Source of the DNA: Psammoneis japonica
Lineage: Eukaryota
DNA: 64,000 nt
Direction: 5' to 3'
NCBI GenBank assembly: GCA_008632985.1
Contig: QPGO01000010.1
Location: 372,001-436,000 of the forward strand
Below the pieces are notes generated by a model. It was not told the DNA's origin. It did not search any database and saw nothing but the letters and a program-made list of their open reading frames with translations. Below are positions 7,209-52,050 of this stretch, piece after piece. Numbering within the stretch: position 1 is the stretch's first letter; each line of letters starts with the position of its first letter. The position numbers and the translations under genes were made by a program.

Positions 7209-8368
7209 GGTGGATCGCTGCTGCCGCTGTTTGAGGAATGACCGTGCGCCTTCCAATGCCCGTGTAGAATTCTACGTGGTTGCAATACCGTTCCAACACT
7301 TTGGATATTTGCACGCGAGCTCGAAGTTGAGAAAGCTCGTATTCCCACAGGGAGGATGGAAGGATAGACGGACGTTCTACATACCTGCACCTACGGTATC
7401 TACCGTACCGTATCTACCCACCTGCAAGTGCAGAACAGCTGTCCGTCCTCATCTACACGTGCTGTGCCAAACCGTACAGTGCTTGTCACTCTACTCTCTA
7501 TCTCTACTCTAGCTAGAGAGTGGACTAGAGTTCTACTTATCGGTGCAACCAGTTTGCTCTAAACTCTTGTAGAACAACAAACACTGTGGCAAGAGGATGC
7601 TTTGACCGATCCGAAAGTTGCAAAAGGTCTGCATTCATGCAGCCTGCTGCAGCTGTTTCCCACTTCCTCAAAATGACGTGGCCCAGCTGGAGAGAGCCAA
7701 AGCTCTGTGACCCGCATCCTCAAACTGCTTCAAAGCAAACCAATTTTTTTGTTGCTGAGAAAAATTGTTCAAGCACTGGAGTGCAAGCAGCATGAAACTG
7801 TGCTGGATTTTTCCTCAATCCAAAGGCGGTGACTGTTTCGTGGCTCCACGGCTTCGAAGAGATGGGCTCGAAGCCTTGCTGCCTGAACAGCTTCTTGACA
7901 ATGACTCTCCTGACATGAAAGCCATTGGCAGAAATGATTGAAGGAAAGCAAGGATTGATTGTCGATTTTAGAACCTGAAGAGAAAATTGAATCAGTCGGA
8001 AGCAAAGTCATTTGAATGGCACCAAAGAGTCAATGTGGGTGGACTTTCCAATGCCATCCTCGGTTTGCGGTTTGACATGTCAAGGACTTGCAAGCCATTC
8101 ATGACATTGAGAGTTCTTAGATTTTTCTCTCTGGCACCGGCAGCTGTCTGTCAGGGGCAGGCTGCGCTTGAGACACACCCCCCACTTCCTGGCCTGAAAT
8201 TACGAGCATGCCTTTTGACTCGCATGTGGCAACACAAGGATGGTTCTCTCATTTCAACTCCCCATTGCTGCCTGCAGCACCTGTGTCAGCATGCATGGAC
8301 AGGTTGGCTGGCTGCAATGGCTTTTAGAAATGGACGTGGAGTCTTTTCCGAAGTGGTGCACCCGCACA

Positions 8369-8609
8369 TGTTGAAATTTGTCCTTCTGGTGACTGTTCCA
8401 GAGCCACCTCAGTCCTCTGGGGTCCGATCCTGAGGGTGAAACAGACAAGCTTGTTATCACAATGCTTTCCAAGAGTCAAAAAAGAACAATGGCTGCTTCC
8501 ATTGGCAGTTTCAGTGCTTCACGTGGAGCACATGAGCACTGGCGCATGAATCTTCTTCTTCGCACCATCTGGTTTTGGTGCTTGGACTTTCAACCCACCA
8601 TTTCCAACA
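8369..8609 (-). repeat. 3' LTR of the Copia element
   Basis: Alignable over its length to 13688-13926; TG…CA ends; purine-rich CAGCAGGAGTG immediately upstream on the minus strand (PPT-like). Confidence 0.93.
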
Positions 8610-11600
8610 CACTCCTGCTGACCAATGACAAGATTCTCACTGTTTCCAAATTTAACCATCTTGGGCACTTGGATGTTCATGATGGCCTGATGATCAACAA
8701 TGAGCTTCTCACCAACCACAGGTTTGGTCATGTGATCTGCCATCATCTTGTCCATTGGGCAGAACTCAATCTCGAGTTCTCCTTGCTTGATGAGGTCAGT
8801 GATGTAAAAATGCTTGATGTGAAAATGTCTGGTGCATTTGCCTGAGCTGGCCTTTCCATTTTGTTCTAATTTCATGCAAATTTAGTTGTCACGATGTGTG
8901 ATGTTGTGCTTGACTTCAAAACCTTGAGCTTCAATGAAACGCTTGGTCCAAAGGACCTTCACCAAAACATCATCTCCTGCAACAATCTCCACTTCCACAG
9001 AACTCCTGGTGTTGATCATCTGCTTTGCACTGACAGATGCAATGATGCCTTTTCCAAGGGTAGAACCTGTGTGACTTTTGCAGTCCGGATGGACTGCAAA
9101 TGCGGCATCCGTGTGCCACTTGATGACAACTTTGTCTCCAGCCAACATGACTGTGACATCAAGCTGGGTTGTCTTGAGGAGAAATTCATGAGCCTCACCA
9201 GCTTTGACCAATCTGATTCATTTGGATCCTTTGCTCTGGTGGAGAGAAAAACAATTCCAGGCTGAATGTCCTGCCTGGCTCTCTTGCAAACAAACATGCT
9301 CTTCATCACAAAAGTGCAAAATGCTCGAGCATGCCTGAGATCCAACTTCTTGGCTGTCTCGTCCACCTTGTTGAGCTTCTTGCTCTGTGGGCAATCCATG
9401 TCACCCAACAATTCTTCTGGGAACTCCTTGAAGAATTCCTTGGCCATTCCTTGCACACAGAGCACCATGTCAACTTGCAGTGCTCCTGGAATGGAGTGAT
9501 CCAGAGTCATGGCTGAACAGTCATGCCTCTTTCCACATGTTGCTTTGACCTTTCCGATCTCATCTGCGTGAGTTTTGTCAAGCCAAATCTTAAATTCATT
9601 GTTGACCTTGCTGTCAACATGGCTGAACTTCAAATCATCTGCATGCCATGTCGCCGTGTGTTGTTTTCCATTCATGATGCGATTGGTGACACATGGATCA
9701 CAAGGGTTAATTTCAAATCTGATTCCTTCAATGTCTCTGCGAAACTTCTTGCAACAAAAAATGGAAGACACCAACATTCCACAGAGTGCCTTCAGCATTT
9801 TGACACATTTGCCTTTGCACACAATGCAGTCCTGGCAAGTGTCTGGATCTAATTCCAGCAACATGTCCACCATCCTTCCATGGATCTTCACAACAATCTT
9901 TTCATCCTTGACCTCAATGTCCATTTGCACAAATGTGCTCAAGATGTCTGCTGTCATGGCATCTCGGCCTTGCTTGGCATCAATCACTCCTGTGATGAGA
10001 ACAGATTCAGTGGATGCTGTTGGGCTGGCGGTTTCATCTCAGTCCATGTGCTCTCATTGCATGCTTCTGTTTGCACACAACCTGGACTTGACTCATCCAT
10101 CTCTTTTCTCTGTGAGAAACATGAGGCTCTCCATGGCTTCCTCTCCAGAGGAGTCATGTCTTTGATGTGAATGGGTTTGAAAACCACTCCATCATGGATC
10201 TGCTTCAGCTCCGACACCGCCAACTTGTGGCCTTCTTCTCCAAACTTCTGGAGTCCTCGTGCCAAGCTGCAAGTCTGAGTGAATTGATGTGCTTCTTCAA
10301 TGGCAGAAATTGTGCTGACCTTCTTGTTCCACTGGCACATTGTCATGGCCATGATTCTGGCCGTCTCCAAGCTGCACTCTTCTTCTTGTGAGTGAGCTTG
10401 AGTCTGCAGATGTCATTGGCAGTCTCCTAATCTTGCCAGAGGTTTCAGAGTCCTTCCTCCCCTGGATGTGGCAACAGGCTCTTTTTGAACACTTTCTTCA
10501 GTTTCACTCTGCTCCTCTCCAGATTTGTCATCAGATTCCAGCTCTTGCATTTTGTCAATGATCTCTTGCACTTTTGGAGAGTGTTCTTTCTCTTGTTCCA
10601 GTCTCTGTTGTTCATCAATGTGGTCAATCATGTCATCAATTTCTTGTGAGATTCCACTGCCGTCTGATGGTTGAGAACCAACTTCGTCATTGTCTCCAAG
10701 ATCATGCTCATCATTGGAGGCTTCTTCTTGATTTTCGTCTTGTTTTCCGCAGCTGGCTTCTTCATCCAATTCTTGATCTTGGATTGTTTCTTGCAGCTCT
10801 TCTTGACTGACTCTGTCACAGTCTCCCCAGTCCAGCTCTTCTTCCTTGTTGTCTTCTGTTTCAATGTCTTCCTCTGGATCACAGTCTTCATCTTCAAATT
10901 GATCTTCATTGCAATCCACTCCTGCAAGCCAAGAAGCACTGTCGTGCAAAACAGCTCCAGCGCAGTTCTGAATCTTGAGACCATTTGGCATCTTGTTCAT
11001 TTCAGCCAAACAATGAACCTGCTTGATGATGGTGGGAGCAATGGGCACAGGGGTGACCTTGCAATGGGTGATCTCCTTGCCTGTTTGCAAGTGCAGCAAC
11101 TGATGTCCAATCTGGTTGCTGTTGGTGGGGCACAAATGAGTGCAATCCAAGGTCCGTGACTCTTGGGTGTTCTTGGGGTCTGGGTTGTCATGAGCCTGCA
11201 CACAAGTGCCGAATGTGATCTTGCAGCTCTTGTCACAGTCTAGACTCTTTTGATGGAGAATCATTCTTGGACTGTAATGTTTGGAAATGCCATGCTTGGC
11301 TGCAAATGTTGAGCTTCTCAGCAGCTTTGGTGACCATGAGTTTTGGCAGATGCTTGAATGGCAGCTGATGACAGGCTGCCCTGGTGTGTTCTTGAACAAC
11401 TTGCTTGTTCCTTTTGGCTTCTGGGGCATGCTCCTGAGCGCCAACGCAGTTCATCTTAAGATCAAGCTTGTCTTCCAGTGCACTCCCAATGGGCCTGCAT
11501 TTGTTGTCACAACGAATGCATGTGACCTTCAAACCAGCCTTGTTGTGGACTCGCGGCACATCTTCCAGAGCTTCTTGATGAGTTGGCTGGGTCACATCCT

Positions 11601-13687
11601 TGAGCGGTTGTGCAGTGCGACAAAAAAATGTTTTGTGACACTGTGGTGAGGAATGGCAATCCATTCACCTTGAGTCCATCCAGGCAAAGAGTGACCTTGT
11701 GCTGCACTGCAATGAGCTCCGTGGGGATCTCTGCACCATCTTCTGCAACTGGCTCTGGCTTCTGCCTTGTGACCTTGCCTTTCAGACTTCCAATGTCTGG
11801 TCCAAAGATCTTCTTGGCCAAATCTACATCCTCCATTGTCATGGAATTGTTCTTGATGCTGTTCATGTGAATGATGGCCTTCAGATCGTTCACAGTTGGG
11901 TTTCCTGATGCACGCAACAATTCCCCAGCTCTCTTGGCTTTCTCAAACTGTTGTGGAGTGTAGAACTTCTTGTTCTCTTCCACACTCTCCACAAATTGGA
12001 GTTGAGCTCCAGTGTCTTCAATCTTGGGCTTGTAAACATGCAGCCCTTTTCCATCCTCCTCGAACCTGATTTTCTTGTTGGGCAGATGAACGGTGAATGC
12101 ATTGTCTTGTGAGGAATCACTTGTGATCCTGTGCTTCTTCTTCATGTTGGAGCAAGCAAAAATGTTGGTGATTGCATCTGGTTTGAACCAAGTCTTGCCA
12201 AACCCTGGTGCCATGGCCTTGTGAGTTGTGACCAGGACTGCGCCATTGATGTGCAATTTCATGACTTCATCCAATGGACAGATGTCTCTGACAAGCTTCT
12301 CGTTGCAGAAGATGGTGGTTGTAGACTGGTTGTCTGATGAAATCCAGTCTCTCATGCTGCCAGATTGATCCTGGCAGAGAGATGCATCGATGTGTGTGCC
12401 AGCCCATCCTGAAACAGCAGATTTTGTTCTAGCGGATTCTTTGGCAAAAGAGTTGGCTGGCTGCACTGGCATCGTCACTTGCTTGAGTGTTGCTTGCTTC
12501 TTGCTTAAAACTTTGGCCTTGTTGATGGCCCATTCTGCTTGAGGTTTTCCTGGCCTTTCCCAGCACTTGTTGGAATGATGTCCTGCTTTGCCACAGCAAT
12601 GACACTTGCCTTCTAACTGAGCAAAGGACAGGGTGATTTCTTGGTTTTCTTCTTGTTTCTTGGAATCAGAGTTGATGTTTTGGTTGTTCCAATCAAAAGT
12701 GTGGTTGCACAACACCATGTTGGCTTCCGCAACAGACTTGGGACATTGGCCATTCTTGAGTGACTGCTGAGTGTTCAATCCTGTCAGAGTTGACCCACAC
12801 TTGCGCTGGTCTGCTTTCTCCAAGCACGTGCAACCCATCAATTGACTGAATGCCTCATCTTGACACTTCTTGATGGAATCTGAATTGTGCTCATTGCAAT
12901 CTGGCATGCCTTCCACTGCCTTGGTGAGGACAATCGGCCCTCTAATGTGAAGTTTCATGATGTCTCTTGCAACCCTGGTGAATCTCTTGGCACGACCTTG
13001 TTTCCAGCGCAGCTCTCATCAAATCTGAGATGACAGCCATGTCGTGCCTGTGCTCTTGACAGTTCAACACATGCTCCTCAATGGCCTTGAGCAACTCAAT
13101 GGGGTTGTTTTCAATTTTGGTTTGGAGCTCGGTTCTTGCTTGAATCTTGTTTTTCATGGCCTTGAAGCATCTCTCCCAGAGCAAGCACAAGCCTTTGTGA
13201 GGTTGTTCTCACAAGTCTGAGTCCTGTTGATGTGAGCATCAAATTCAGTCTTGAGCTCAATTTTGTGCCATTTGTTTGATGGCACGTCCGCCTTGTCATC
13301 TCCAGCCAAGCTGACCTGCAAAGTCGGCTTCTTGGAACTCATGCCACATGGAGTGCAAGTGTTGAGTGCAGCTGCAATGTCGTTTCCAAACTCACAAGTC
13401 TTTTCAATGCAGTTGATGATGAACTCAGCTGCAATCTGAAAATTAGATGCTTGCTTGGCACTCCCAACACAGCAGACACAATCATTGATGCCCTTGTGGC
13501 TTTGCTTGCCACTCTTGTTGCCCCTTCCTGAGGGTCCTCTTCCTTGGCTTTCATCGCCAGTTCTGCCTCTGCCTCTTCCACTCATGATGAAATGGCAAAG
13601 CAGCAAAACATCTCACACAACATGAGGGTGACTCTTTTCTTTCTTGCTTTCTTTTCGCAGCTCTCAGCTGGATGCTTCTCTTTCAGC

Positions 13688-13926
13688 TGTTGAAATTTGT
13701 CCTTCTGGCGACTGTTCCAGAGCCACCTCAGTCCTCCAAGGTCTCATCCTGAGGGTGAAACAGACAAGCTTCTTGTCACAATGCTTTCTAAGAGTTGGAA
13801 GAGAACAATGACTGCTTCCATCGGCAGTTTTGGTGCTTCACGTGGAGCACATGAGGGCTGACGCAAGCATCTTCTTCACAGCCATCTAATTTTGGTGCTT
13901 GGTCTTTTAATCCACCATTTCCAACA
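13688..13926 (-). repeat. 5' LTR of the Copia element
   Basis: Direct repeat of 8369-8609, followed by TSD GCACA. Confidence 0.93.
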
Positions 13927-14796: not shown

Positions 14797-17700
14797 ATGA
14801 GGCTTTTAAGGGTGAGCTTGTGCCTTGCTTTGCTGCGCACAGGTTTGAGTCAGACTGATGAACCAAGTGACGTGCCTTCAACGATGCCCAGTGTTTTCCC
14901 TTCTGGCATGCCATCGGGAGCGCCAAGTGATGTTCCCTCGACAATGCCGAGCACCATGCCAAGCGCAGTGCCTTCGTCGACTCCGTCGGATGTTCCGAGT
15001 GGCATACCTTCGTCGACTCCATCAATGATGCCTTCCACCTTACCAAGCAGTGCTCCGTCGGGCATGCCGAGCAGCTCTCCTTCAGTGGTCCCCTCGACAA
15101 GCCCATCCGACATTCCCAGTGGCATGCCGAGTAAAACGCCTAGCGCCATGCCTTCAGGAGTACCGAGTGCTGTCCCTTCTGATCTTCCGTCCGTATTTCC
15201 GAGCAGCATGCCAAGCTCCATGCCTTCGTCAAATCCATCCTTGGCGCCATCGAGTCAGCCTTCGGAAGTACCGAGTGCGGCACCCAGTGATGTCCCCTCG
15301 ACTAGTCCATCAGCTCGACCAAGTGATGTGCCCTCTATGCAACCATCTACGGTGCCTTCGACAAGCCCGTCAGCTGTACCCAGTTCGGCACCCAGTGATG
15401 TCCCGTCGGCTAGTCCATCATCCCAGCCAAGTGACAACCCTTCTGCGCAACCGTCTACGGCGCCGTCAAAAAGCCCATCAGCTGTCCCCAGTTCAACACC
15501 CAGTGATATCCCGTCGGCTAGTCCATCGGCTCCGCCCAGTGATGTCCCTTCTGCGCAACCATCTATGGCTCCCTCAACAAGCCCGTCAGCTGTCCCCAGT
15601 TTGGCACCCAGTGACATGCCGTCGACCAGTCCTTCAGCCCAACCAAGTGATGTGCCTTCTGCGCAACCGTCTGCGGTGCCATCGACAAACCCGTCAGAAG
15701 TCCCAAGTTCGGCACCCAGTGACATGCCGTCGACTAGTCCATCAGCCCAACCAAGTGATGTGCCTTCTGCGCAACCGTCTGCGGTGCCATCGACAAGCCC
15801 GTCAGAAGTCCCCAGTTCGGCACCCAGTGAAATCCCGTCGGCAAGTCCATCAGCTCAACCAAGTGATGAACCGTCTGCGCAACCCTCTGCGGTGCCTTCA
15901 ACAAGCCCATCAGCTGTCCCCAGTTCGGCACCCAGTGACGTGCCGTCGACTAGTCCATCGGGTCAACCCAGTGATGTCCCTTCTTCGCAACCATCTACGG
16001 TGCCTTCAGCAAGCCCGTCAGAAGTTCCCAGTTCGGCACCCAGTGTTGTACCGTCGGCCAGTCCATCTACCCAACCAAGTGATACGCCTTCGGCACAACC
16101 GTCTACGGTGCCTTCAGCAAGCCCGTCAGAAGCTCCCAGTTCGGCACCCAGTAATGTGCCGTCGGCCAGTCCATCAACAAAACCAAGTGATACGCCTTCT
16201 GCGCAACCGTCTACGGTGCCGTCAACAAGCCCATCAGCTGTCCCCAGTTCGGCACCCAGTGACATCCCGTCGGCTAGTCCATCGGGTCAACCCAGTGATG
16301 CCCCTTCTGCGCAACCGTCTACGGCGCCTTCAACAAGCCCGTCAGCTGTCCCCAGTTCGGCACCCAGTGACATGCCGTCGACTAGTCCATCAGCCCAACC
16401 AAGTGATGCGCCTTCGGCACAACCGTCTACGGTGCCATCAACAAGCCCGTCAGAAGTTCCCAGTTCGGCACCCAGTGATGTGCCGTCGGCTAGTCCATCA
16501 TCCCAGCCAAGTGACACCCCTTCTGCGCAACCGTCTACGGTGCCGTCAAAAAGCCCATCAGCTGTCCCCAGTTCAGCACCCAGTGATATCCCGTCGACTA
16601 GTCCATCGGCTCAGCCCAGTGATGTCCCTTCTGCGCAACCATCTACGGTGCCTTCAACAAGCCCGTCAGAAGTTCCCAGTTCGGCACCCAGTGATATACC
16701 GTCGGCCAGTCCATCTACCCAACCAAGTGATACGCCTTCGGCACAACCGTCTACGGTGCCTTCAGCAAGCCCGTCAGAAGTTCCCAGTTCGGCACCCAGT
16801 AATGTGCCGTCGGCCAGTCCATCAACAAAACCAAGTGATACGCCTTCTGCGCAACCGTCTACGGTGCCGTCAACAAGCCCATCAGCTGTCCCCAGTTCGG
16901 CACCCAGTGACATCCCGTCGGCTAGTCCATCGGGTCAACCCAGTGATGCCCCTTCTGCGCAACCGTCTACGGCGCCTTCAACAAGCCCGTCAGCTGTCCC
17001 CAGTTCGGCACCCAGTGACATGCCGTCGACTAGTCCATCAGCCCAACCAAGTGATGCGCCTTCGGCACAACCGTCTACGGTGCCTTCAACAAGCCCGTCA
17101 GAAGTTCCCAGTTCGGCACCCAGTGATGTGCCGTCGGCTAGTCCATCATCCCAGCCAAGTGACACCCCTTCTGCGCAACCATCTACGGTGCCGTCAAAAA
17201 GCCCATCAGCTATCCCCAGTTCAGCACCCAGTGATATCCCGTCGGCTAGTCCGTCGGCTCAGCCCAGTGATGTCCCTTCTGCGCAACCGTCTATGGCTCC
17301 TTCAACAAGCCCGTCAGCTGTCCCCAGTTCGGCACCAAGTAACATGCCGTCGACCAGTCCTTCAGCCCAACCAAGTGATGTGCCTTCTGCGCAACCGTCT
17401 GCGGTGCCATCAACAAGCCCGTCAGAAGTCCCCAGTTCGGCACCCAGTGACATGCCGTCGACTAGTCCATCAGCCCAACCAAGTGATGCGCCTTCGGCAC
17501 AACCGTCTACGGTGCCTTCAACAAGCCCTTCAGAATTTCCCAGTTCGGCCCCCAGTGATATACCGTCGGCTAGTCCATCATCCCAGCCAAGTGACACCCC
17601 TTCTGCGCAACCGTCTACGGTGCCATCGACAAGCCCGTCAGAAGTCCCCAGTTCGGCACCCAGTGACATCCCGTCGGCAAGTCCATCAGCTCAACCAAGT

Positions 17701-20700
17701 GATACGCCTTCTGCGCAACCGTCTGCGGTGCCTTCAATAAGCCCATCAGCTGTCCCCAGCTCGGCACCCAGTGATATACCGTCGGCTAGTCCATCCGCTG
17801 AACCCAGTAGCGTGCCATCCTCGACACCTTCAGCCGTACCTTCAACAAGCCCGTCAGCAGTCCCGAGTTCTTCACCAAGTGATATCCCGTCGATTAGCCC
17901 ATCAGCTGAACCCAGTAGCGTGCCTTCCTCGACACCTTCAACGGTGCCTTCAACGAGCCCGTCAGCGGTCCCGACTTCTGCACCAAGTAACGTTCCGTCG
18001 ACCAGTCCATCAGCCGAACCAAGCGACACCCCTTCTGCGCAACCGTCTGCGGTGCCATCAACAAGCCCGTCAGCTGTCCCGAGTTCTTCACCAAGTGGTA
18101 TTCCGTCGAATAGTCCATCGGCTAAACCCAGTAACGTGCCATCCTCAACGCCTTCAACGGTGCCTTCAACAAGGCCATCAGCTCCCCCAAGTTCGGCACC
18201 CAGCGAGTCTCCTTCGACTAGTCCATCCGCACAACCGTCTACGGCGCCTTCAACAGGCCCATCAGCTGTCCCAAGTTCGGAACCCACTAGTATCCCATCA
18301 ACTAGTCCGTCAGCGGAACCGAGTAGCGTGCCATCCTCGACACCCTCAATGATGCCTTCTTCAAGCCCATCCGCTCCCCCAAGTTTGGCACCCAGTGAGG
18401 CTCCTTCGACTAGTCCATCCGCACAACCGTCTACGGCGCCTTCTATAGACCCATCAGCTGTCCCAAGTTCGGCCCCCACTAGTATCCCATCAACTAGTCC
18501 CTCAGCTGAACCGAGTAGCGTGCCATCCTCGACACCCTCAATGGTGCCTTCAATAAACCCATCAGCCGCCCCAAGTTCGGCACCCAGTGAGGCGCCGTCG
18601 AATAGTCCATCAGAGGGACCGAGTAGCCAGTTGTCCTCGACACCTTCGACGGCACCTTCGAGAAGCCCATCAATTGTCCCAAGTTTGCCACCCAGTGAGG
18701 GACCATCGACTAGTCCATCCACTCAACCAAGTGATTGGCCTTCTTTGCGACCGTCTTCGGTGCCTTCAACAAGCCCATCTACGGACCTTAGTTCGGCACC
18801 CAGCACAATCCCGTCGGCTAGTCCGTCAGCTGGACCGAGTAGCATGCCATCCTCGGCACCTTCAGTGGTACCTTCGACAAGCCCATCAGCAGCCCCAAGT
18901 TCGGCTCCCAGCCATGTGATGACGGCGATGCCATCTGATGTACCCAGCACAAAACCAAGCAACGAGCCGACAGACCAGTCAAGCGCTGTTCCGAGTGGAT
19001 CTCCCAGTAACACACCTAGTGCGTCACCATCTGTGTCCAGTGCCGTACCGTCTAAATCCCCTTCAGCGGTTCCAAGCACAACACCGTCTGAAGAAGGCAG
19101 TTCATCGCCATCCGGAACACCGTCCAATGTACCGTCTACATCGGCGCCACCATCTGGCTTACCGAGCGCTGTACCATCATTGGCCCCTTCCTCAAGCAAT
19201 GAACCGTCTGTGACACCGATCTTTGCTCCCTCATCAGCTCCTAGCAATGCACCATCGTCGCAACCATCGGCTGTACCATCAGACGCCCCTTCAGCGGTTC
19301 CAAGCGCAACGCCAACCGGTGTAGACAGCGCAGCGCCATCAACGGCTCCTAGCGATGCACCATCGTCGAAACCGTCGGCTGTGTCTAGTGCGGTACCATC
19401 GGACGCCCCTTCAGTGGTTCCAAGCGTAACGCCAACTGGAGGAGACAGTGCAGCGCCATCACGGTCTCCCAGTAGTACACCATCGTCAAAACCGTCAGCT
19501 GTGCCTATTGTGGTACCGTCAGATGCCCCTTCATCGGTTCCAAGTGTAACGCCAACTGGAGGAGACAGTGCAGCGCCATCAACGGCTCCTAGCGATGCAC
19601 CATCATCGAAAACATCGGCTGTACCATCAGACGCCCCTTCAGCGGCTCCAAGCGTAGCGCCAACCGAAGTAGACAGCGCAGCACCATCAGCGGCTCCTAG
19701 CAATGCACCATCGTCCAAACCATCGGCTTTTCCATCAGACGCCCCTTCTGAGGTTCCAAGCGGAACACCATCCGGAGTAGACAGCGCAGCGCCATCAACG
19801 GCTCCTAGCAATGTACCATCGTCGCAACCATCGGCTGTACCATCAGACGCCCCTTCCGCGGTTCCAAGCGTAACGCCAACTGGAGGAGACAGTGCAGCGC
19901 CATCAAGGTCTCCCAGCAGTGCACCATCGTCGAAACCGTCGGCTGTGCCTAGTGCGGCACCATCAGACGCCCCTTCAGCAGCTCCAAGCGAAACGCCAAC
20001 TGGAGGAGACAGCGCAGCGCCATCAAGGTCTCCCAGCAGTGCACCATCGTCAAAACCATCGGCTGTGTCTAGTACGGTACCATCAGACGCCCCTTCAGCG
20101 GTTCCTAGCGTAACGCCAACTGGAGGAGACAGTGCAGCGCCATCAAGGTCTCCCAGCAGTGCACCATCGTCGAAACCATCGGCTTTGCCTAGTGCGGTAC
20201 CATCAGATGCCCCTTCAACGGTTCCAAGCTATAAACCGTCTGAAGAAGGCAGTTCAGTGCCATCGGGGACACCGTCCAATGTGCCGTCCGCAGTACCAAC
20301 ACTAGCTCCTTCTTTGGCACCAAGCAATTCACCGTCTGCATCGGTGCCACCATCTAGCTTACCGAGCGCAGTGCCGTCCTTGGCTCCTTCATCGAGCAAT
20401 GAACCGTCCATGGCACCGTTTTTCGCCCCCTCATCGGCTCCTAGCAATACACCATCGTCGAAACCGTCGACTGTGCCTAGTGCAGCACCATCAGACGCCC
20501 CTTCAGCGGCTCCAAGCGTATCGCCAACTGGAGGAGACAGTGCAGCGCCATCAACGGCTCCTAGCGACGCACCATCGGCGGTGCCTAATGCGGCGCCATC
20601 AGACGCCCCTTCAGCGACTCCAAGCGTAACGCCAACTGGAGGAGACAGTGCAGCGCCATCAAGGTCTCCTAGCAACTCACCATCGTCGAAACCGTCCGCG

Positions 20701-23172: not shown

Positions 23173-23612
23173 CTCAACGCATTCTTCCTCTGATGTTGGG
23201 AAAAATCAACGCATCCAACGCTTCTACCGTAAATGTTCATTGATTCATATTTGTATGTTCATTTTCTCATCGTGGCCCAGCAATTCGCAATTGTGGCCCA
23301 GCAATTCGCAATTGTGGCCCACTCTCAACGCATTCTTCTTAATTGTTGGGCAACAATTCAACGCATCCAACGCATCCAACGCTTTTACTGTAACTACATA
23401 TGCTCATTGATTAATGTTTGTATGTTCATTTTCTCATCGTGGCCCAGCAATTCGCAACTGTGGCCCACTCTCAGCGCACTCTTCTCAGTTGTTGGGCAAC
23501 AATTCAACACGCAGCCAACGCAGCCAACGCTTTTGCTGTGGCTGTGCTCATTGGTTGATGTTTGCATGTTCATTTTCTCATTGTGGCCCAGCAATTCTCA
23601 ATCGCGGCCCAG
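23173..23612. repeat. Three-copy ~146-bp tandem repeat straddling the edge of a TpA-depleted domain
   Basis: Copies start at about 23173, 23322 and 23468 (CTCAACGCATTCTTC…GTTGGG…ATGTTCATTTTCTCATCGTGGCCCAGCAATT). Confidence 0.9.
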
Positions 23613-23629
23613 TCTCTGCTCTCAGAGCT

Positions 23630-24365
23630 CTTGTTCCTGTGAACTCCGGACCGCTTGGAAGTTGGGCAGCAGCACAGCGACGGCAGCAGACGCACCGCCC
23701 AATGACAGAAAAACAGAGTTGGAAAAAAGCGGCTTCGTTTGGGATGTTTTCAAAAATCTGTGGGAGAAACAGTGTGAGAATCTGTTGCTGCACATTGCAG
23801 TTCATGGAGACAGCAAGTGTCGCGACTTGTTGTGCTTCGATTCGTTTCTTTTCTTGTCACAATGATCTGAGTGTCTTTTCATTTTTCTGCGCTTTGCTGG
23901 CAGCGTCAGTTCCCAGTGTGGATGAGACAGGTCTTGGGCCATGGGTGTTATGACAGAGGCAGGAGAAGGACACCATGCCTTCTGAGAGACGTCAAAAGCC
24001 AGACGACGTTGGATGTGTTTGGGGTGTTTCCGACTGCCTTTGGAGTGAAAAATTCCAACAGCTGTGTCAGCACCGCGAGACTCATGGAGACAGCAAGTGT
24101 GGCCATTTGTTGCACTTTGGCTGCTCTGATTTGGTTGTCTAATGTTCTGCTCTGTGCACCTCGTTTTTCTGGCATTGCAGCGTTGGTTCCCACCAGAACG
24201 GTTCTTGGGTCATGGGCAAATGCACAAAGGCAAAACAAGGACGGCATGTCAGCGGAACAATGTCAAAAGCTGGAGGACATCAGGTTTGTTTGGGACATTC
24301 TTGACTGCTCTTGGAACGAGAACTGCCAATGGCTGCGCCAGTGCCGCCAGGCTCATGGATGCAGC
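23630..24365 (+). pseudogene. Helicase-associated (HA, PF03457-like) repeat protein pseudogene
   Basis: Three repeats of VP…LGxWxxxQR…LExxGFVWD…W…L…HGD, with same-phase introns at 23813-23903, 24093-24180 and from 24364. In-frame TGA (probably from CGA) and a frameshift are present. Confidence 0.85.
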
Positions 24366-27174: not shown

Positions 27175-27445
27175 TTTGTTTTGGCAGAAAGTTGTTGGAA
27201 GGTTCGGCTGAGGTGATGTTTTGGCCCAGCACTGCTTGATGGCATCCAATTTCCTTGCATGTTGTCTCAGACTGTTCTGTGGGTCCAACCTTGTTGTTGA
27301 CTTGTCATGTGCAACCTGGTTTGAACAAAGCACACTTGGATGCATCATTTGTTTTGGCAGGAAGTTTTTGGAAGGTCGCCAAGGTGATGTCTTGCCTGGT
27401 CAAACAACGGGGTCCAATGTCCTCCTTGCATGTTGTCTCAGGTGC
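27175..27445. repeat. Diverged tandem duplication, period ~173 bp
   Basis: GTTTTTGGCAGAAAGTTGTTGGAAGGT (~27177) vs GTTTTGGCAGGAAGTTTTTGGAAGGT (27351); CCTTGCATGTTGTCTCAG at ~27253 and ~27424. Confidence 0.65.
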
Positions 27446-41490: not shown

Positions 41491-41499
41491 TTGGAAATT

Positions 41500-44400
41500 T
41501 CCTGCCAAGCAATTGGCTTGGATGTGCTTCCAAAGAACAGCAAGCTCCACTGCATTGTTGCATTGTGCTGTGGCAATGGATGCAATGCATTGAAGCAAAT
41601 CCCATTTCAGGTGCATCCAGCTTTTTGCAAGGAAGCAGTGGGGTTGGCAGACTCATGCCCCAAGCAAGGAAACCCATTGATCAACAATTGCTTCGCACTC
41701 TTCAAGGATTTCCTGCGGTTGCTTGCTTTCTTTTTTAAAGCTGATTCATCATTGGATGACAGTCATGAGATGACTGTCTTTGTTAAGAATGCCCACAAAG
41801 CACTCAAAGTTCCTAACAAGAGTTGCAAAGATTGAGTGTTGTTCATTGGTTCACTTGCACAAGTGCATCAAGAAGCAGATTGTTGAAATGCTCAGCTTGT
41901 TCCTGAGTCAAGCTGACAGTCTGGTCATCATGGATGCCTCATCCAACTGAGTTTGGGGCCTGTGCCATCAATGTGAACATTGCAATGACTCTTTGTCTTG
42001 CACTTCATTTGGTGTCAATGGTGTGGATGTCACCAACCCACCGACCATTGCCAATCTTCCCCCGGATGACACTCCTCATGATGTGTTTGCACCTGAAGAT
42101 GCTTTGGTTCCATGGGATGACACCTTTGACACACTTTGTGATGAGTTGCATGCCCTTGACATTCCTTTTGACAGACAACAATTGTCTTTTGCATCACACT
42201 CACTTGGTGTTTTGCATCACACTCAATTGGTGCTGGTGTTCAAACTCAAGGCTGATCCAGACAAAGCTGCCAAGCATCCATGTCTCGTGTGCAGTCCCAT
42301 GGGATGACACCTTTGACACACTTTGTGATGAGTTGCATGCCCTTGACATTCCTTTTGACAGACAACAATTGTCTTTTGCACCACACTCACTTGGTGTTTG
42401 CATCACACTCAATTGGTGTTGGTGTTCAAACTCAAGGCTGATCCAGATAAAGCTGCCAAGCATCCGTGTCTTGTGTGCACTGGCAAACATCTTTTTAAAG
42501 ATTGTCCCATCCTCAAGAACCATCCTTGCATCAAGGGTTTTCACATTTGCTTCTGCCAGTTCTTGAAGCAAGAAGCTGCTCAATGTGCAGCTGCCTTTGC
42601 TGGCACTTGGGGTGACTCACCTGCTGGACAGAATGGACAAGTTCTCCTGCCTGCTGATTCTCCACCATTGGATTTTCAGTTGGATGATCATGGCAAAGTT
42701 CTGGATCTACAATGCAGCCCGTTCTCTCCTTCCTGAGACAAACCCAATGATTTGCAGGGCAACTGTGAAAGAAGGACTCACTGCTCTGTTGCCTTCTGCT
42801 TCTGCACCTCTTTCTCCAGATGCCAGTGTGGACACTGCCCACCTCACCAGCCCCCTCAACAACACCTGAAGTCATGAATCTCCTCAACAATGATCCTTTG
42901 GCTGATGAACTAGATCAGGAGAGGGCAGAGGAGGCTGTTGAGCAACTGTTGGAACCTTTTGACCTTGAATGCTCTGACACACATGAGACAAAACTGAATT
43001 TGCCATCATCAACTCTGTCCAGATCTCAGTTGACACACCTTCTTGGGTGTCTCCATCCATCATGTTTGATGCAAAACACAAAGCTTTTGAAGCAAATGCA
43101 GTGCAGTTTGAGGCTGAAGAATGTTGCACCCAGTTCAATGCTGGTGCCCATGTCTCCTGTGTGAGTGCTGATGTGGATCTGCTCCATCAACAACAAGCAT
43201 TTGCTCCATCCAACCCATGGTCCCTCAAGGTGAACCCAGCTCTTGGTCAAGCAGCCACCCCCCGTGGCCATGGATGCTTGTCAATGAGCATGCATTCCAC
43301 ACATGCAATGGCGGTTGCAAGAAAGATTTTTCAGTTGATTGTCTTCTCAAGTTTCATGATCGTGGTGCCTGCAAGCACATGCTGTGAAATGCAGACTCTG
43401 CTCCAGTCAAGATGTGATCATCCATGGACAGCTCGTCAATGTTCATCCTCAAATCCTCCCAGAAATGCATGACATGCTTGACAAGTCCATCACAACACTC
43501 AAGAAGGATGACCCCATGTTTGCTGAAGAATGTGATGCCATCATTGTGCATGTGATTGACACTCCTTTTTGACTCTTGCCTTGAAGAAGAGGTTCCTGTG
43601 CAGCCCCCCAAGGCTGACACTGAATGCCTGCTTTGGCATCAACATCTTGCCCATCTGAGTTGCCACTGCTTCCACAATGCTTGCCAACATTTTGATGGCA
43701 TTCCCAGGTTTGACCATGGTGCCTCTCCTTTGCATGCTTGTTTCACTTGCATTTGTGCAAAGCAGACCAAAAACCTGGTGGGTTCCAACTCTGCTTGGAC
43801 TGCCACCCAGCCTCATCAGGGATCAACTGTGGATTTTGCATTCTCTGGTTTAAAGTCCAAGAATGAGGACCATGTGGGACTCAATGGCAAACCACATTGG
43901 ATCACAATCTGTGGTCATTGCACTTGATGTCTCCATTGATTTGTGAACAAACACTGGTCAAAATGTCCCAACAAACATGTCTTTGTGGATCAAGGTGGTG
44001 AGTTGCGTGCATCGTTGAACATGACTTCCAATGCAAGATGTGGCCTTCTGGCACTGATGCCTCCAATCAGAGTGACCCTGTTGAATGTGGTCTCTTGAGT
44101 GAAGAATGCCATCCATTCTGTTTTGATTGGCGCCAATTTGCCAGTGAAATTTGGCCATGTGCTTTCCACCACTGTCTCCATGTCAAGAATGCCTCACCTT
44201 CCAAGGACCAAGATGTTGCTCTCATTGCCCTTTCTGCTGGAAAAAGGAGAATTTTTCAACTCTTTGCACCTTTAGATTCCGTGTCTGGGCTCACAAGAAC
44301 AAGAGTCATCTGGCTGCCAAGCACTCCAACTCAATCAAGGGCATTTTCCTTGGTTGCATGCCTGACACTGCCAAGAATTTTATCTGGTGTGATGCTGCCA

Positions 44401-46830
44401 TGTCCCCTGTCAAGATGGACAAGCACATTTGGTTTGATGAAGGCATGAATGATCTCCCACATGATGATGTCCCACCAAATGCTGTGCACTTGCAATGCAC
44501 TCAGAATGGCAAACCATTTCCAGCTGAAGCAATGGAGTCCACTGTGGATGGATTTTATTTTTCAGGCAATCCACTCTCCAAGCCACTTGCTCATGCTGTG
44601 AAATGCTCCCCTTTGGATGAAATTCAGGCATGGACATCACCACAGATGAACCATTCAACCATGTGCATGTCTCTGGCATCAAGTGGTTCCGCCTTGTGCC
44701 TCTTCTTCCCCTCGAGGCTGCCAAAAAAAGATTGTGGGCACCTGTGTCACATTGATTGATGGTGTTGATGTTTTCACTTGTGACCAAGTCATTGCTGAGC
44801 TTTGTTGCCTGTGCAATGCTGATGATCCAGAATTTGTTGTTGGCTTTGCTCTGGAATGTCATCTTGATTCCAAGCAGCTCCAACATGCTTTGGTGGAACA
44901 TGACATGTGTGCTCCAAGCCCAGGAGAAGAAGAGGAACATGTTCCTGAGCTCACCTGGGCTGATGTGCAATCCATGGCGGTGCTGTGGTTCCCTGATGTT
45001 GATTTTTCCATGTTGGACAATGTGGTGATCTGGATTCACTCCCCATGATTGATCATGAGCCTGGTGCACTCAATGTTTTTGTTCTCGCTTCTCATGCCAT
45101 CACCCCAGAGAAACAAGAGCTGGATGGCTTTGCTTCAAAATGCCTCCAGAAGCTCCCAACTTGGCCCCTTTGGCACAAAGGTGAGTTCAAGCAACTTGAT
45201 CATTTTCATGTGCTTGGCATGTTTGGTGCTCCAACACCCCATCCTGAGGATGCCATTGTCTTGCATCCCCACTGGCAATGTGACATCAAGATGGATGGCA
45301 CACACTGATCTCAGCGCTGTTGCAATGGATTGCCTTGAACAGCACCAGCTTTACATTGCCCACAGTCCACCTGTTTGTCTTGTGTGGAACAGCCTGCTCA
45401 ACATCTCTTTTTTGCCATCTCATCTTCCATGAGCCACTGTGTCTGCTTCAGCAATGCTCAAGATGCGCGCGGCCACTCACCACATCCCACAACCCCTGTT
45501 TGCATCCAAGTTGACAAAACCCATGCCACATGGTGCAAGGACGACCACTTTGGCACAGACCTGGACCACTCCATGGTGCTGGCAATCCTTCATGCTCTGC
45601 AGGGACACCCTGAGTCTGGTGTTCCATGGGAGAATTACATCAGCGCAACATCAACAGATGCAAAGCTTCTCTCCCAGAATGCCGCTCATGACAAGAGCAG
45701 TTGTGCTGGGACTGTTGACAGCAAGCAAGCTCTGCTCTTCTGGCAGGTTGATGATTTCTTGATTGCATGCCTGGAGAAATCCTTTGCCATCAAGATTCTT
45801 GATTCAATTGGTGAGTCGCTGCATCTCCCTGGTGAGGATGCCATTCCTTCCAAGTGCTTGGGGCTCTGTGATGAACTCAATGGTGTGGATGTCCATCAAC
45901 ATGATGACTCTGCTTCCATTGCTTGCCATGGATGGCTTGATCACACATTGAAATCACATGGTTGGCTGAAACCTGCTGTGGATGAATCAGACTCCAACTT
46001 CCAAGCCGCTCCTCTCCCTGTTGAGTCTGTCTGCCAGTTGTGCTCTGATGTTGGTCTGGTGGAAGGCACCCCCAAAAATGTGCTGAACTGGCAGAGGCTC
46101 AAGGTTCTGGACATCAAAACTTGCTGGGTGAATTGTTGCATGTGTGTGTCAAACTTGATGTTGGGCATGCAATCACCACATTGTCCAAGTTTGCATCACA
46201 CCTGTCTCTGATTCATTGCACAGCATTGAAGGGTGTTGCCAAGCATCTGCACCGCACAAAGCATTGGAACATCAACTGCAAGAAACCTGCCAAGGATCAT
46301 GCATTGCCACCACATCCACATGAGCAACTTAAGCTGGATGACTCCCCACCCTGATTCACTCAACTCCATGCTTTCTTGGATGCTGCATGTGGAAATGATC
46401 TCCACAATTGATGCTCCGCCACTGGGCATGCTTGTGTGTTGGCTGGCACCACTGTCTTATGTTGTTGCAAAACACAGATTGTGACCACCATGAGCTCCAA
46501 TGAGGCTGAGTTCTGTGATGGCACTGCTGCCAAACAGATCCTGTGCCTCCACTCTGCACTTCAGGGACTTGGATTTTTTCAAGAGGGTCCTGCTCCTTTG
46601 TGTGTTGATGATGAGTTGGCCATCAAGATCATCAACAATCAAGTTCCAACTGAGCACTCCTGCCACATTGACATTCAGTGTGGTTTGCCCTCCAAGATTG
46701 GAAGGATGCTGGTCAAATTGTTGCTCAACACATTCCTGGCATTGTTGACCCAAACAATGACCTTGCCAAGGCTCTCAGGTCAACACTGCATGCCCGCCAT
46801 GCACATCAGATGATGGGGGCCACTTCCATT
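41500..46830 (+). mobile_element. Degenerate Copia (CoDi-like) internal region: gag-PR-INT-RT-RNase H; LTRs not identified
   Basis: GNGCNALKQI…HPAF (gag), CLVC..KHLFKDC, QFNAGAHVSC (protease), LLWHQHLAH and VDFAFSG (integrase), VLHPHWQC.IK, SCVEQP, ALQGHPESG, QVDDF (RT), SSNEAEF and HIDIQ (RNase H). Confidence 0.9.
42110..42479. repeat. Near-identical 187-bp tandem duplication within Copia gag
   Basis: CCATGGGATGACACCTTTGACAC… starts at 42110 and 42297. Confidence 0.93.
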
Positions 46831-49505: not shown

Positions 49506-51313
49506 AAAGAGGCAGCCATCATGGCTGCTGAAAGCTGTGGCTGTTTTTGTTTTTCTTTGTTGTTCTTGTTTGTTTTGGCTTCAGACATGAATGTGGTGAC
49601 ATTTGTGATGCAAGCAATTGTCACAATGAACACATCATGAAACACATGTTTCTACATGAAAACAGGCATGTGCATGCCACCCAAGTCTGAGGCAAGTCCA
49701 CATGAGTTGACAAACAGCACTTGTTTGCCCATTGTGCATCTTTTCCACCTCATTTCTCCAGCATCTCTCTCTTTCTTAGTGCCACACCAGGCCAGCCCAA
49801 CAAACTGCGTTAGCCAGGTTGGTGCCAGCACTGCACTTTGGATGACCAGCCAGTGCCAAGGCACGCACTTTGCCACAAACTGTTCTTCTCAAGAGTTTTT
49901 TCCTTTCTTCTGCCAGTGCTGGCATTTTCAACTCTTTTCACACACACACAAAGTGAGCAGTTTTTCTTGCAGCAGGAGGTTGAGCCACAACGACATTGTT
50001 GCACACATGCAAAAAGAGGGGTTTTCCTTGCAGCAAGACCAGCTGCAAAACAGCAGGCATCTGGGGCACAATGCTTTGTGCCCCATGATGCCCATCTGAA
50101 GTTGCAGCTGTTGCCACTGTCACACTCTGTCTCAAGTGGAAGTCAGGAGGGATCAGCACACCCGGAGTGCACCACATGAAAGATGGGTGGCGAGAGGGGA
50201 CAGGAGGCACGCAGTGGGTGGAAGCAAAAAAAGGTGGGCCAAGGCATGGACATGTGGGCAAGAGTGGACAGAGGGAAGAGTGAGTCAAGCATGAGGGTGC
50301 AATGGAGAAGGGACATGCGCATGTGTGGAAAGACAAGTTGTGCCAACCAACACCCACATGAGAACAAAATGTTGTGCAACACAAGAAAACCCCACTCATC
50401 TCTTGTGAACTGCAGTGTGTGAGCAAAGTGCCCACTGAGACCATTTTCCACATGATGTTTTCTTCCCTCACATCAGTTCTCTTGCTCTCTTGTCTTTTGT
50501 CTCTCAGTTTGACAAGCAGTGGATGTCAGTGTCAGAGAAGCAGGGGGAGCAATTTTTGGAGCTCCAGTGGAAACTGGCTGACATGTGTGTGAGCCAAACA
50601 TGAAGTTGATGGTGCAGCCACGGTGCAGCCATGGTGCAGCTGTTGTCAGGTGGAAGTCAAATGATGGGAGTTCATGGAGAGTTGTTCCTTCTTGCTTCAG
50701 AATTTCTTCGTGCAAAATGTCTCCCGCTGTTGAGTCAAAGTCTGGACCAAAATGTTCAAAATCTGTCAGCCAAGCATGCCGTTGCATTGGTTGGACCAAT
50801 GAAGAGAGATTTGGACAAAAAAAGGTGGAGTTTGCAAACCAGCATCTGGCACAGAAACCAAGCAATGCAAAGGATCCGCGGCAGAGAGATTTCCCCACAA
50901 ACAGCCCGGAGCTGAGGGACTCAACAGCCTGCCAGCACCCTCTTGAGCAGCAAGAAGAAGTGTGCTCTCCAACAGACCCCTCCCAAATGAATTGTTTTTG
51001 TGCCAATTTGGCAGTGCCAAAAGGAAGTTGGGTCGCACTTCTTTCACATGGCCAAAACAGCCACTTCATCTGGTGGATGGCAGCTGGAGGCATTTGAGCT
51101 CTTGCAGCATGTCACACCACAACCTTTCTTGCAGCTTGGTCCTGTTGTGCACTGCAGCAACAGATTTTGTCCCAAAATCAACTTGAGTGAGCATGTTCTT
51201 TTGCATTTCTTCACTCTCGTTGAACAGACAACATGCTTGCCCAAGCGCCGCTTCTTCGTGTTGCTGCATGACTCGCAAACCCACTCCAGCAAGTTGGAGT
51301 GTTGCTCTGTTGA

Positions 51314-51485
51314 AACATGCTCAACTTTGAGGAGGGTGGTGTGGGCACCCCTCTTGTTTGCACCCATTTAGACAAAGAGCAGAGCCGCAATGACAAGACA
51401 TGCTCAACTTTGAGGAGGACAGCGCGCTGGGTGCCTGCCCCTCTTTGCACCCACTCAGACAAGGAGCAGAGCCGCAACAACAAGA
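51314..51485. repeat. Two-copy ~85-bp tandem repeat
   Basis: ACATGCTCAACTTTGAGGAGG…TTTGCACCCA…GAGCAGAGCCGCAA occurs at about 51315 and 51398. Confidence 0.8.
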
Positions 51486-52050
51486 GCGAGAGTTGTGATG
51501 AGATGCAGCAATGTCATGCTTCTTGAAAAGGGCAGCAATGTTGTGCTTCTTTTCATCGACAATGGAAAAGCATGACGGTCCCAGCAGTTTGCAACATTTT
51601 TCCAAAGACCAGCGCGGCAATTTCCGTTTGTCACATCGGGTGCGGAATTTTTGCATGAAGGGGGCCATGACGCATGCGCAAAAATTTGGGCGAATTTCAT
51701 GGGGGGCCTCAAGAAAATACGGTACAGCCCCCCCCCGCAAAATCACGAGATGTTTGTGCATAAATTTTGTAGAAGTACTATGTAGAAGGGAATGACCCCC
51801 CACCCTGCGATAGATAGATGTGGCGTGGGAAAAGAAAGAGCAGTGCAGACACTTTCGAATTTATGAATGGGCAATGTAACAGATGTCAAATGACCGAGCC
51901 TTCCGAGCAACCGTCATTATCACATTAAAAATACAGTATATAAAGTTACAAGCAACACAAAATATTATATACTGTACCATAATGTCAAACCTAAGTCTTG
52001 TGTAAGTCGTGACGAAAGTAGTAGATTTATGCCCATTGTGTCCCATACTT

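Follow-up and report, generated by a model that had tools for sequence, protein, structure and literature searches.

Near-absence of TpA and loss of CpG in transposon-derived blocks of Psammoneis japonica DNA

Depleted blocks and their neighbors

The 64,000-nucleotide stretch of Psammoneis japonica DNA analyzed here (hereafter the window; GenBank assembly GCA_008632985.1, contig QPGO01000010.1, positions 372,001 to 436,000 of the forward strand) holds the remains of two unrelated Copia-type retrotransposons and further degraded repeats, lying among genes of ordinary composition, and within these repeats the dinucleotide TpA has nearly disappeared. A sequence-only reading of this DNA had described three blocks of dead transposable elements and pseudogenes almost devoid of TpA, and had proposed a hypermutation opposite in sense to fungal repeat-induced point mutation (RIP). 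The depletion occupies the following stretches, to which no strand applies (counts are followed by o/e, the ratio of observed to expected occurrence):

7571-13788: block 1, TA- and CG-depleted; a Copia-type long terminal repeat (LTR) retrotransposon plus about 800 bp at its left
23422-26190: block 2a; TA 7 (o/e 0.04), CG 90 (0.54)
26925-27985: block 2b; TA 1 (o/e 0.01), CG 34 (0.53)
30243-51717: block 3, 21.5 kb of degraded repeats; TA 70 (o/e 0.05), CG 181 (0.15), TG 2581, CA 2453

Pooled over 31,523 bp, the blocks contain 104 TA steps where the density in 11,813 bp of flanking non-repeat DNA (526 TA) predicts 1,404, bearing out the claim that TpA is nearly absent from dead elements while the flanking genes are normal. 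CpG, which that claim left aside as a signature, is lost as well, to a different and variable degree (389 CG steps against 1,713 expected at flank density; 642 in the flank). Pooled o/e values are 0.05 in the blocks and 0.65 in the flank for TpA, 0.22 and 0.96 for CpG, and 1.82 and 1.20 for TpG and CpA, while the 12 remaining dinucleotides are unchanged (0.88-1.21 in the blocks) and G+C content is steady (47.8% in the blocks, 47.4% in the flank). A 1-kb profile and a list of TA gaps give TpA o/e values of 0.00-0.14 and CpG values of 0.05-0.55 across the four blocks, with TpG/CpA at 1.5-2.3, compared with 0.5-0.85 for TpA and 0.8-1.16 for CpG in flanking DNA; the longest TA-free gaps span 1,558 and 1,516 bases. 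Sorted by 3' neighbor, the loss of TAN plus CGN is balanced by the gain of TGN plus CAN for A (20.2 lost, 19.7 gained), C (20.5, 21.8) and G (17.2, 17.5). A 3' T is the exception, with 25.4 lost and 18.4 gained, so that about a quarter of the loss is unrecovered.

The borders of the blocks are sharp to within tens of bases. At the left of block 1, 23 TA steps in 7306-7570 end with the last normal one at 7570, and the next, at 7969, follows 399 empty bases; this border lies 800 bases beyond the nearer LTR, and only one long contig of X1, a public sequencing run filed under the same organism code, matched 7213-8283. The right border of block 1 falls at the outer end of the other LTR, with normal density from 13993 on. 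Block 3 is bordered at 30242 and 51718, with a single TA between 51369 and 51718 followed by 25 in the next 275 bases. Within block 1, TA and CG o/e are 0.08 and 0.42 in 7571-8368, 0.06 and 0.29 in the left LTR, and 0.06 and 0.21 in the interior. Although depletion in the three claimed blocks stands, their number does not, as an island of normal TpA at 26191 to about 26630 splits the second (26191-26924 as a whole has a TA o/e of 0.36). Two islands in all, 26191-26630 and 27986-30242, show ordinary TpA and CpG between depleted blocks, and neither has a long open reading frame (ORF) or clear terminal repeats. Terminal repeats were sought around the first of these islands and nothing convincing was seen; the islands may be younger insertions or protected unique DNA.

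The recognizable transposon features of the blocks, including two reverse transcriptase (RT) regions, are as follows:

8369-13926, coding on the minus strand: block-1 Copia element, with LTR pair, gag-protease, RT and RNase H
8369-8609, minus: LTR a, the 3' LTR of this element; begins TG and ends CA
13688-13926, minus: LTR b, its 5' LTR; keeps three TA steps, at 13789, 13887 and 13908
8534-10143, minus: RT and RNase H of the same element, from tblastn matches; RT core used, 9019-10038
11510-13015, minus: gag-protease region of the same element; contains WISSDNQS
45339-46208, plus: RT of a second, unrelated Copia family, in block 3; 60 homologues
43556-44756, plus: integrase-side matches of the second Copia element; weak gag_pre-integrs and SH3_retrovirus hits (Pfam)

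An RVT_2-type RT, a gag-protease region upstream of it, flanking LTRs of the form TG...CA and homologues that carry PF07727 place the block-1 element in Ty1/Copia. Its RT has 67 homologues, most of them annotated with Pfam PF07727, and is frameshifted near residue 297; tblastn found no second copy of this RT family in the window. The gag-protease region is matched by 6,177 library proteins at an E of 0.001 or better. Named homologues of the second RT come from Nitzschia inconspicua and Cylindrotheca closterium, and the transposon proteins match those of Attheya, Epithemia, Nitzschia and Cylindrotheca. Pfam recognizes neither RT (0 families), both having been recovered by homology search only, and a Pfam scan of the 94 stop-to-stop ORFs of the blocks (at least 110 amino acids) gave weak matches in five. 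Because Pfam misses both RTs, standard annotation may undercount such diatom repeats. TAA and TAG are nearly absent from the blocks in all frames (7571-51717), which are consequently full of long spurious ORFs on both strands that gene callers would over-predict.

Degenerate tandem repeats lie just upstream of and inside block 2a, at 23204-23616 (144-bp unit) and 23715-24380, and the remainder of blocks 2 and 3 consists of degraded repeats in which HA and GNAT are weakly matched and several tandem arrays have decayed. Dead transposable elements are confirmed, while the pseudogenes of the sequence-only reading correspond to weak Pfam hits, with HA below its curated cut-off and one GNAT match just above. 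Comparison of the window with itself, in ordinary letters and recoded as purines and pyrimidines, brought out no other large pairs of repeats; in the recoded comparison, hits of 25-30 letters were set aside as noise.

Two unaffected genes close to the blocks serve as controls:

4059-7029, minus: coatomer beta' gene, COPA/B domains; 540 bp separate it from the left border of block 1
14797-22638, plus: gene for a giant Pro/Ser-repeat protein; paralogue at 52481-60322

Best named homologues of the coatomer beta' gene are from diatoms, including Odontella, Triceratium, Entomoneis and a genus whose name begins Thala (78-82% identity), which together with the transposon matches marks the host as a diatom, and the DNA between this gene and block 1 (7030-7570) has a TA o/e of 1.01 and a CG o/e of 1.00. 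The two Pro/Ser-repeat paralogues align over 4.5 kb at 77% identity, and both hold long internal arrays, among them one of a 108-bp unit repeated 27.4 times (83% match). Despite this duplication, TA o/e in the Pro/Ser-repeat gene is 0.44-0.79 and CG o/e is 0.83-1.04. Just beyond every border, within a few bases, non-repeat DNA is likewise normal. Since duplicated, 77%-identical genes with long arrays are untouched, we think that targeting follows a transposon-silencing mark and not duplication as such, although selection on the Pro/Ser-repeat genes, or an identity threshold, could account for their escape.

Several observations concern these neighbors themselves. Both Pro/Ser-repeat proteins look secreted, and the first has a C-terminal DUF11/DUF7507 domain; the plus-strand frame of the second copy ends at 60322, and beyond it repeat-like sequence runs to about 63.5 kb and reads as an antisense ORF of 1,186 amino acids, pointing to a frameshift or an intron. 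On the plus strand, 1873-3572 holds an ORF with a STAND NTPase domain of the NACHT / NB-ARC type, and a 246-amino-acid ORF without a family match comes after it. Contigs of another run, X2, skip 88 bases of the coatomer beta' gene (CT..AC, 6287-6376), equivalent to a GT..AG intron on the minus strand, and because of this joint run X2 probably contains transcripts. Its contigs cover the coatomer gene, with almost none on the element, and have no bearing on silencing. Nor do depths summed over the element amount to a copy number.

Transitions in place after integration

An LTR element integrates with two identical LTRs, and differences between them record what has happened since. The block-1 pair is 86.7% identical in ordinary letters and 95.9% identical in the purine/pyrimidine alphabet, and repeat pairs overall rise from 76-87% to 95-96% on the same recoding. 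Among the 47 pyrimidine-purine (Y-R) steps of the LTR pair, 3 read CA in one copy and TG in the other, 2 TA/TG, 2 CA/TA and 2 CG/TG; pooled over six in-block repeat pairs, there are 13 CA/TG steps, 16 of TA against TG or CA, and 15 of CG against TG or CA. Transitions outnumber transversions 115:41 in these six pairs, compared with 37:31 in a non-repeat control, the duplicated DNA upstream of the two Pro/Ser-repeat genes, where seven TA/TA steps are kept. The change therefore took place in situ after integration. It is mutational, lies at the DNA level and is confined to repeats, as the sequence-only reading had supposed; neither CpG decay nor RIP, whose dinucleotide signature is opposite, explains the TA loss.

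At sites outside Y-R steps, the LTR pair differs by 10 transitions and 8 transversions at 145 sites (about 12% divergence), indicating that the element is old. From the survival figures given below, we estimate that, per base, TpA changes some 30-50 times as fast as the background for transitions, and CpG about 25 times as fast.

Assembled contigs of run X1 give a second view of the same changes. In all, 933 contigs align to the element, many of them diverged relatives, and 244 of the 287 places scored for kind of change are transitions; the following tallies come from the differences listed (40 of 292, 38 of them inside the block). Five adjacent pairs of TG/CA swaps separate window and contigs, and such double swaps are predicted by independent conversion of an ancestral TA or CG but would be rare under ordinary mutation. 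The window has TG or CA where contigs have CG in 6 cases and TA in 3, and TA where they have CA in 1; 11 other transitions and 7 transversions complete the tally. An 8,311-letter X1 contig spans 4000-8404 and crosses the left border of block 1 with seven differences, five of them in 834 depleted bases and two in 3,570 normal bases. Three of the five in the depleted part are places where the window has TG and the contig CG or TA, which hints at recent or ongoing activity.

Outcomes on the two strands are near parity (TG 3,726 and CA 3,426 in the blocks), in agreement with the claim that both arise, and their order shows no clustering in runs (runs-test z of 0.63, -2.04, -1.35 and 0.13), so the events appear independent at each site and not processive along one strand. 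Over 31 one-kilobase windows in the blocks, TpA o/e (0-0.12) and CpG o/e (0.05-0.60) are uncorrelated (Spearman rho 0.08), and block 2 has lost 96% of its TA steps but only about 45% of its CG steps. From these two observations, the losses of TpA and CpG are separable, and the TpA route is the faster.

Loss of TpA follows a steep four-base rule, the reverse of what an absence of context bias would give. Relative to the flank, survival is 0.019 at VTAB, 0.14 at TTAB/VTAA and 0.47 at TTAA (R, purine; Y, pyrimidine; V, not T; B, not A), about additive per strand: RTAY is about 99% gone and roughly half of TTAA is kept. ATAT, GTAC and ATAC/GTAT together occur once in the blocks and 172 times in the flank. 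CpG survival is 0.60 at GCGC, 0.36 at CCGC/GCGG and 0.14-0.24 in other contexts, its loss being weakest at GCG. Neither ApA (o/e 1.19 in the blocks, 1.10 in the flank) nor ApT (0.89 and 0.97) shares in the depletion.

The same changes can be read in codons. Aligned to their homologues, three coding regions span 31 columns of conserved Tyr, which now hold 16 Cys, 6 His, 1 Tyr and 8 other residues:

Block-1 RT: 9 conserved-Tyr columns; 8 Cys, 1 His
Gag-protease: 9 conserved-Tyr columns; 3 Cys, 3 His, 1 Ser, 1 Leu, 1 Tyr
Second RT: 13 conserved-Tyr columns; 5 Cys, 2 His, 3 Trp, 3 other, 0 Tyr

Each motif change named in the sequence-only reading was recovered against homologues: KALYG to KALCG, NPYDPC to NPCDPC, WHVDD to WHADD (codon GCA), HDYL to HDCS (TGT, TCA), and WILLDNQS to WISSDNQS, where the consensus is W-I-L-L-D-N-Q-S and both changed codons are TCA here. 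Ratios of Tyr-to-Cys and Tyr-to-His changes differ by element (8:1, 3:3 and 5:2), with no consistent strand bias among them. In the second RT, Arg has become His four times and Cys, Trp and Gln once each, and these changes, along with those where C and G meet across a codon boundary, show the CpG half of the process.

Records from elsewhere extend the pattern. Among 80 metagenome loci encoding relatives of the block-1 RT, 78 have ordinary TpA (o/e 0.45-0.96), many being CpG-poor only; the pattern-based scan that found them favors intact copies, so mutated copies are under-sampled. The sequence-only reading had asked whether intact young members of the same families might be equally TA-poor, and for these 78 relatives (TpA o/e at least 0.45) the answer is no, although they come from other organisms and are not young copies from the same genome. 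Two loci are TA-poor, L078 (TpA o/e 0.17 over a whole locus of 2055 bp) and L060 (0.30), and the RT of L078 reads KAPCG, NPHDPC and HEHL where its relatives have Tyr, with His the more frequent outcome. In three RTs from databases, P0043, P0065 and P0087, the aligned conserved-Tyr columns hold mostly Cys or His and never Tyr, and P0094, which aligns at two such columns only, has Cys and His. Judged from these sequences, the process operates outside this assembly as well, in the same or other species.

Two further observations belong with these records. P0330 and P0373 are among other Copia sequences, from unrelated metagenome and read-archive records, showing TpA or tyrosine loss. Conserved Tyr has become Trp (TGG) three times in the second RT (45339-46208, residues 198, 250 and 262), and also in P0043, P0065 and L078; a change from TAY to Trp is beyond the reach of transitions alone.

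Explanations for the TpA loss

Mutation at methyl-CpG usually outpaces all other point mutation in a methylated genome, and TpA change that is faster still, only inside repeats, is exceptional. Our preferred explanation, to which we give about an even chance, combines decay of methylated CpG with a second, repeat-targeted and TpA-specific A:T->G:C activity, probably enzymatic. Two separable transition processes would thus act on transposon-derived DNA after integration, one on each dinucleotide and both ending in TpG/CpA. The first would convert CpG to TpG/CpA by decay of methylated cytosine, to an extent that varies between blocks and is weakest at GCG. The second would convert TpA to TpG/CpA faster and more uniformly, striking the strands independently and site by site, with the adenine's 3' neighbor (on the opposite strand, the 5' neighbor of the thymine) mattering in the order T, C >> G > A, and would be driven by an enzyme recruited to repeat DNA and not by passive chemistry.

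The preferred chemistry for this second process would be hydrolytic deamination of adenine to hypoxanthine, which is read as G, in a T-A-Y context of double-stranded or transiently opened DNA. As the same type of reaction as the change of 5-methylcytosine (5mC) to T, it would explain why both routes converge on TG, and it would account for the common end state, the strand independence and the 3'-neighbor rule. Its net effect would be the removal of every Tyr codon and of many Arg, Val, Leu and Ile codons, leaving the elements permanently inactivated.

Of the agents that the sequence-only reading had put forward, a TA-preferring adenine deaminase is a possible candidate. A Pol eta-like mutator of WA to WG is a poor fit, as ApA is not depleted, and an adenine modification finds no support, for in the parts consulted of one preprint eukaryotic N6-methyladenine (6mA) lies at ApT in active genes and leaves no mutagenic footprint; the same source describes 6mA as absent from one diatom tested and Phaeodactylum tricornutum as having 5mC only (10.1101/2024.10.28.620566). 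Stramenopile deaminases joined to SAM and Tudor domains or arrays, or to a Rossmann domain, have been predicted, with editing or mutagenic roles suggested (PMC3239186, in excerpt), and an RID-related methyltransferase to which that source assigns no function in the portion available, DNMT4, is present in 31 of 60 diatom species (PMC9998398). More tentatively, it is possible, with a likelihood that we place well short of even, that diatoms have a transposon-directed mutator that makes T-A-Y adenines read as guanine on duplex DNA and acts beside cytosine methylation as a form of permanent silencing.

Several points weigh against the combined explanation. Because the elements are old, a steadily elevated rate at TpA would suffice and a burst is unnecessary. 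Transitions outside Y-R steps are common too in the repeat pairs (58 of 510 sites, against 57 of 426 Y-R sites), and purines one base downstream of a Y-R step are often changed (TAA/TGA to TGG), so the dinucleotide counts may make the process look cleaner than it is; transition frequencies in the repeat pairs are 0.151 at YRR, 0.109 at RRY and 0.046 at RRR. The sharp borders could reflect insertion history instead of targeting. No candidate enzyme is encoded within the 64-kb window, and we know of no natural adenine deaminase that acts on double-stranded DNA. Run X1, whose library type is unrecorded, may come from the assembly's own sample, and X1 alone is for that reason not independent support.

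Among the alternatives, a by-product of repair in methylated DNA comes closest, though we consider it unlikely. A corrector of T:G mismatches (always T to C), there to undo deamination of 5mC, would also act on replication-error mispairs at TpA and let TA drift to CA/TG wherever it is recruited, or error-prone resynthesis of repair patches would introduce the changes. In Escherichia coli, depletion of CTAG and enrichment of CCAG/CTGG are attributed to very-short-patch repair, and in the blocks the changes co-locate with CpG decay, suggesting methylated DNA, and look slow, independent at each site and strand-symmetric, as replication errors would be; the needed rate, tens of times background, should be attainable by uncorrected T:G mispairs. 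An efficient corrector of T:G to C:G should, however, preserve CpG, which is unprotected here (o/e 0.05-0.60), and the lack of correlation between TA and CG losses (rho 0.08) also counts against this alternative. A Pol eta-like spectrum predicts loss of ApA, the o/e of which is 1.19 against 1.10, and 78 of the 80 related elements in other organisms, many of them CpG-poor, show no TA loss.

The target could instead be thymine, a TET/JBP-type dioxygenase oxidizing T in R-T-A and 5mC in CpG within repeats to 5-formyluracil and 5-formylcytosine, which mispair and so give T to C and C to T. Thymine hydroxylation with a TpA preference has precedents in the 5-hydroxymethyluracil of dinoflagellates and, at telomeric TTA, in base J. 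If a single class of enzyme acted on 5-methylpyrimidines that precede a purine, the convergence of both Y-R steps on TG/CA would be explained, and the context rule could just as well describe a T that is favored when A or G precedes it. As TpA is self-complementary, T- and A-targeted processes are indistinguishable from sequence. We nevertheless regard oxidation of thymine as improbable, in that the uncorrelated losses argue against a single enzyme and the literature matches listed for 5-hydroxymethyluracil all concern dinoflagellates, with no diatom among them.

Ordinary passive decay is slightly more doubtful again. Old, methylated and unselected DNA would lose CpG by deamination of 5mC and TpA by general instability or under-representation; the elements are indeed old, with about 12% divergence between LTRs at non-YR sites, and TpA is already under-represented in normal DNA here (o/e 0.65). 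But TA has been lost to a greater degree (0.05) than CG (0.22), and completely even in places where half of the CG survives, the four-base rule is steep (RTAY about 99% gone, TTAA about half kept), and unselected non-repeat DNA a few bases away is normal. CpG-poor relatives elsewhere also keep their TA, with CG and TA o/e of 0.14 and 0.55 in locus L032 and of 0.23 and 0.59 in L058.

That the clearest affected sequences are retroelements would fit editing before integration, in which ADAR/ADAT-like A-to-I and APOBEC-like C-to-U changes in retroelement RNA or complementary DNA (cDNA) are fixed by reverse transcription, and so would the preference of known editors for an A preceded by U or T. Such editing is very improbable given that the strands are affected about equally without strand-coordinated runs, that TG/CA differences between the LTRs of a single element run both ways, and that the changes extend to tandem repeats and to the 800 bp beyond the LTR.

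An artefact of sequencing or assembly, such as miscalls in modified DNA, had been named as a danger by the sequence-only reading and seems to us scarcely credible. X1 contigs at a word depth of about 57 carry the TA-less sequence, short ones matching the element interior with zero or one difference, and yet differ from the window at seven places, although the run may share the sample of the assembly and its library type is unrecorded. Independently of that run, changes of Tyr to Cys or His also appear in L078 (JGI), P0043 and P0087 (ENA) and P0065 (Logan), and frameshifts are present in the elements, together with ordinary divergence of about 12% between LTRs. Least probable of all is adaptive avoidance, in which transposons evolved to be TA- and CG-poor to escape a host nuclease or sensor, as documented for CpG and UpA suppression under selection in RNA viruses (PMC3829696, in part), since the changes have destroyed conserved residues (30 of 31 Tyr, the V of HVDD and the LL of the protease-region motif), the copies are frameshifted, and copies and LTRs differ as TG or CA at the same site.

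To our knowledge, repeat-targeted point mutation as a genome defense is established only in fungi and there as C->T only, and duplex-DNA A:T->G:C activity exists at present only in engineered base editors. A search of the full-text literature, with subscription journals outside its scope, turned up no account of TpA being lost from transposons, whether in diatoms or in any other organism. If the combined explanation is true, a TpA-specific A:T->G:C process in transposons would represent new mutational chemistry in major marine primary producers. The transposon-directed mutator put forward more tentatively above would, if real, be a natural DNA adenine-deaminating defense without known counterpart and a second, independently evolved analogue of RIP with the opposite dinucleotide polarity. 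The TpA-specific process would give a testable role to orphan diatom enzymes, the RID-like DNMT4 and the Tudor-linked deaminases, and could reveal a natural enzyme for A:T->G:C change in duplex DNA. The chance that the chemistry is categorically new is real but unproven.

Comparison with known systems

The CpG half of the pattern resembles methyl-CpG decay as it occurs in vertebrates and plants, and the TCG-type 'RIP-like' decay of basidiomycetes, in turning CpG into TpG/CpA to a variable extent and only in repeats. The blocks show the matching sequence changes, a CG o/e of 0.05-0.60 compared with 0.96 in the flank and a corresponding gain of TG/CA, from which methylation may be inferred, and methyl-CpG decay alone is seen in many related Copia loci of other organisms. 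Such decay leaves TpA untouched, however, whereas here the loss of TpA is stronger than, and independent of, that of CpG.

Very-short-patch repair in E. coli is alike in converting TA-containing words to CA- or TG-containing ones as a by-product of a system linked to cytosine methylation. It acts genome-wide, mildly and on one tetranucleotide, in contrast to the repeat-restricted, near-complete loss described here, in which RTAY is affected far more than TTAA. The WA to WG activity of Pol eta in antibody somatic hypermutation likewise changes A to G after T on either strand, secondary to cytosine deamination and repair, but should strike ApA, which is intact; the excess of transitions is restricted to purines next to a Y-R step (0.151 at YRR), and RRR has the lowest frequency (0.046).

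APOBEC3 and ADAR also inactivate retroelements through deaminase-type transitions with a neighbor preference, but they act on single-stranded cDNA or RNA, before integration and asymmetrically between strands, while the changes in the window are symmetric, follow integration and extend to repeats that are not retroelements. AMT1-type 6mA differs in being a symmetric methylation at ApT (VATB) in active genes, as opposed to a change at TpA in repeats with ApT unaltered.

Closest in its consequences is the RIP of ascomycetes (RID / DIM-2), a DNA-level transition hypermutation confined to repeats and transposons that, like the process described here, is post-integration, copy-specific and dinucleotide-specific and kills coding capacity. 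The label 'reverse RIP' fits the outcome only and is not a demonstrated relationship. RIP changes C to T mainly at CpA, creating TpA and depleting CpA/TpG, whereas here TpA is erased and CpA/TpG doubled, with an A:T->G:C component that is not known from RIP. RIP indices accordingly run opposite in the blocks, with o/e of 0.05 for TA against 0.89 for AT, and of 1.82 for CA and TG against 0.90 for AC and GT. The two may also differ in what they leave alone, as the window's duplicated genes (77% identical across 4.5 kb) and its 27-copy arrays have escaped.

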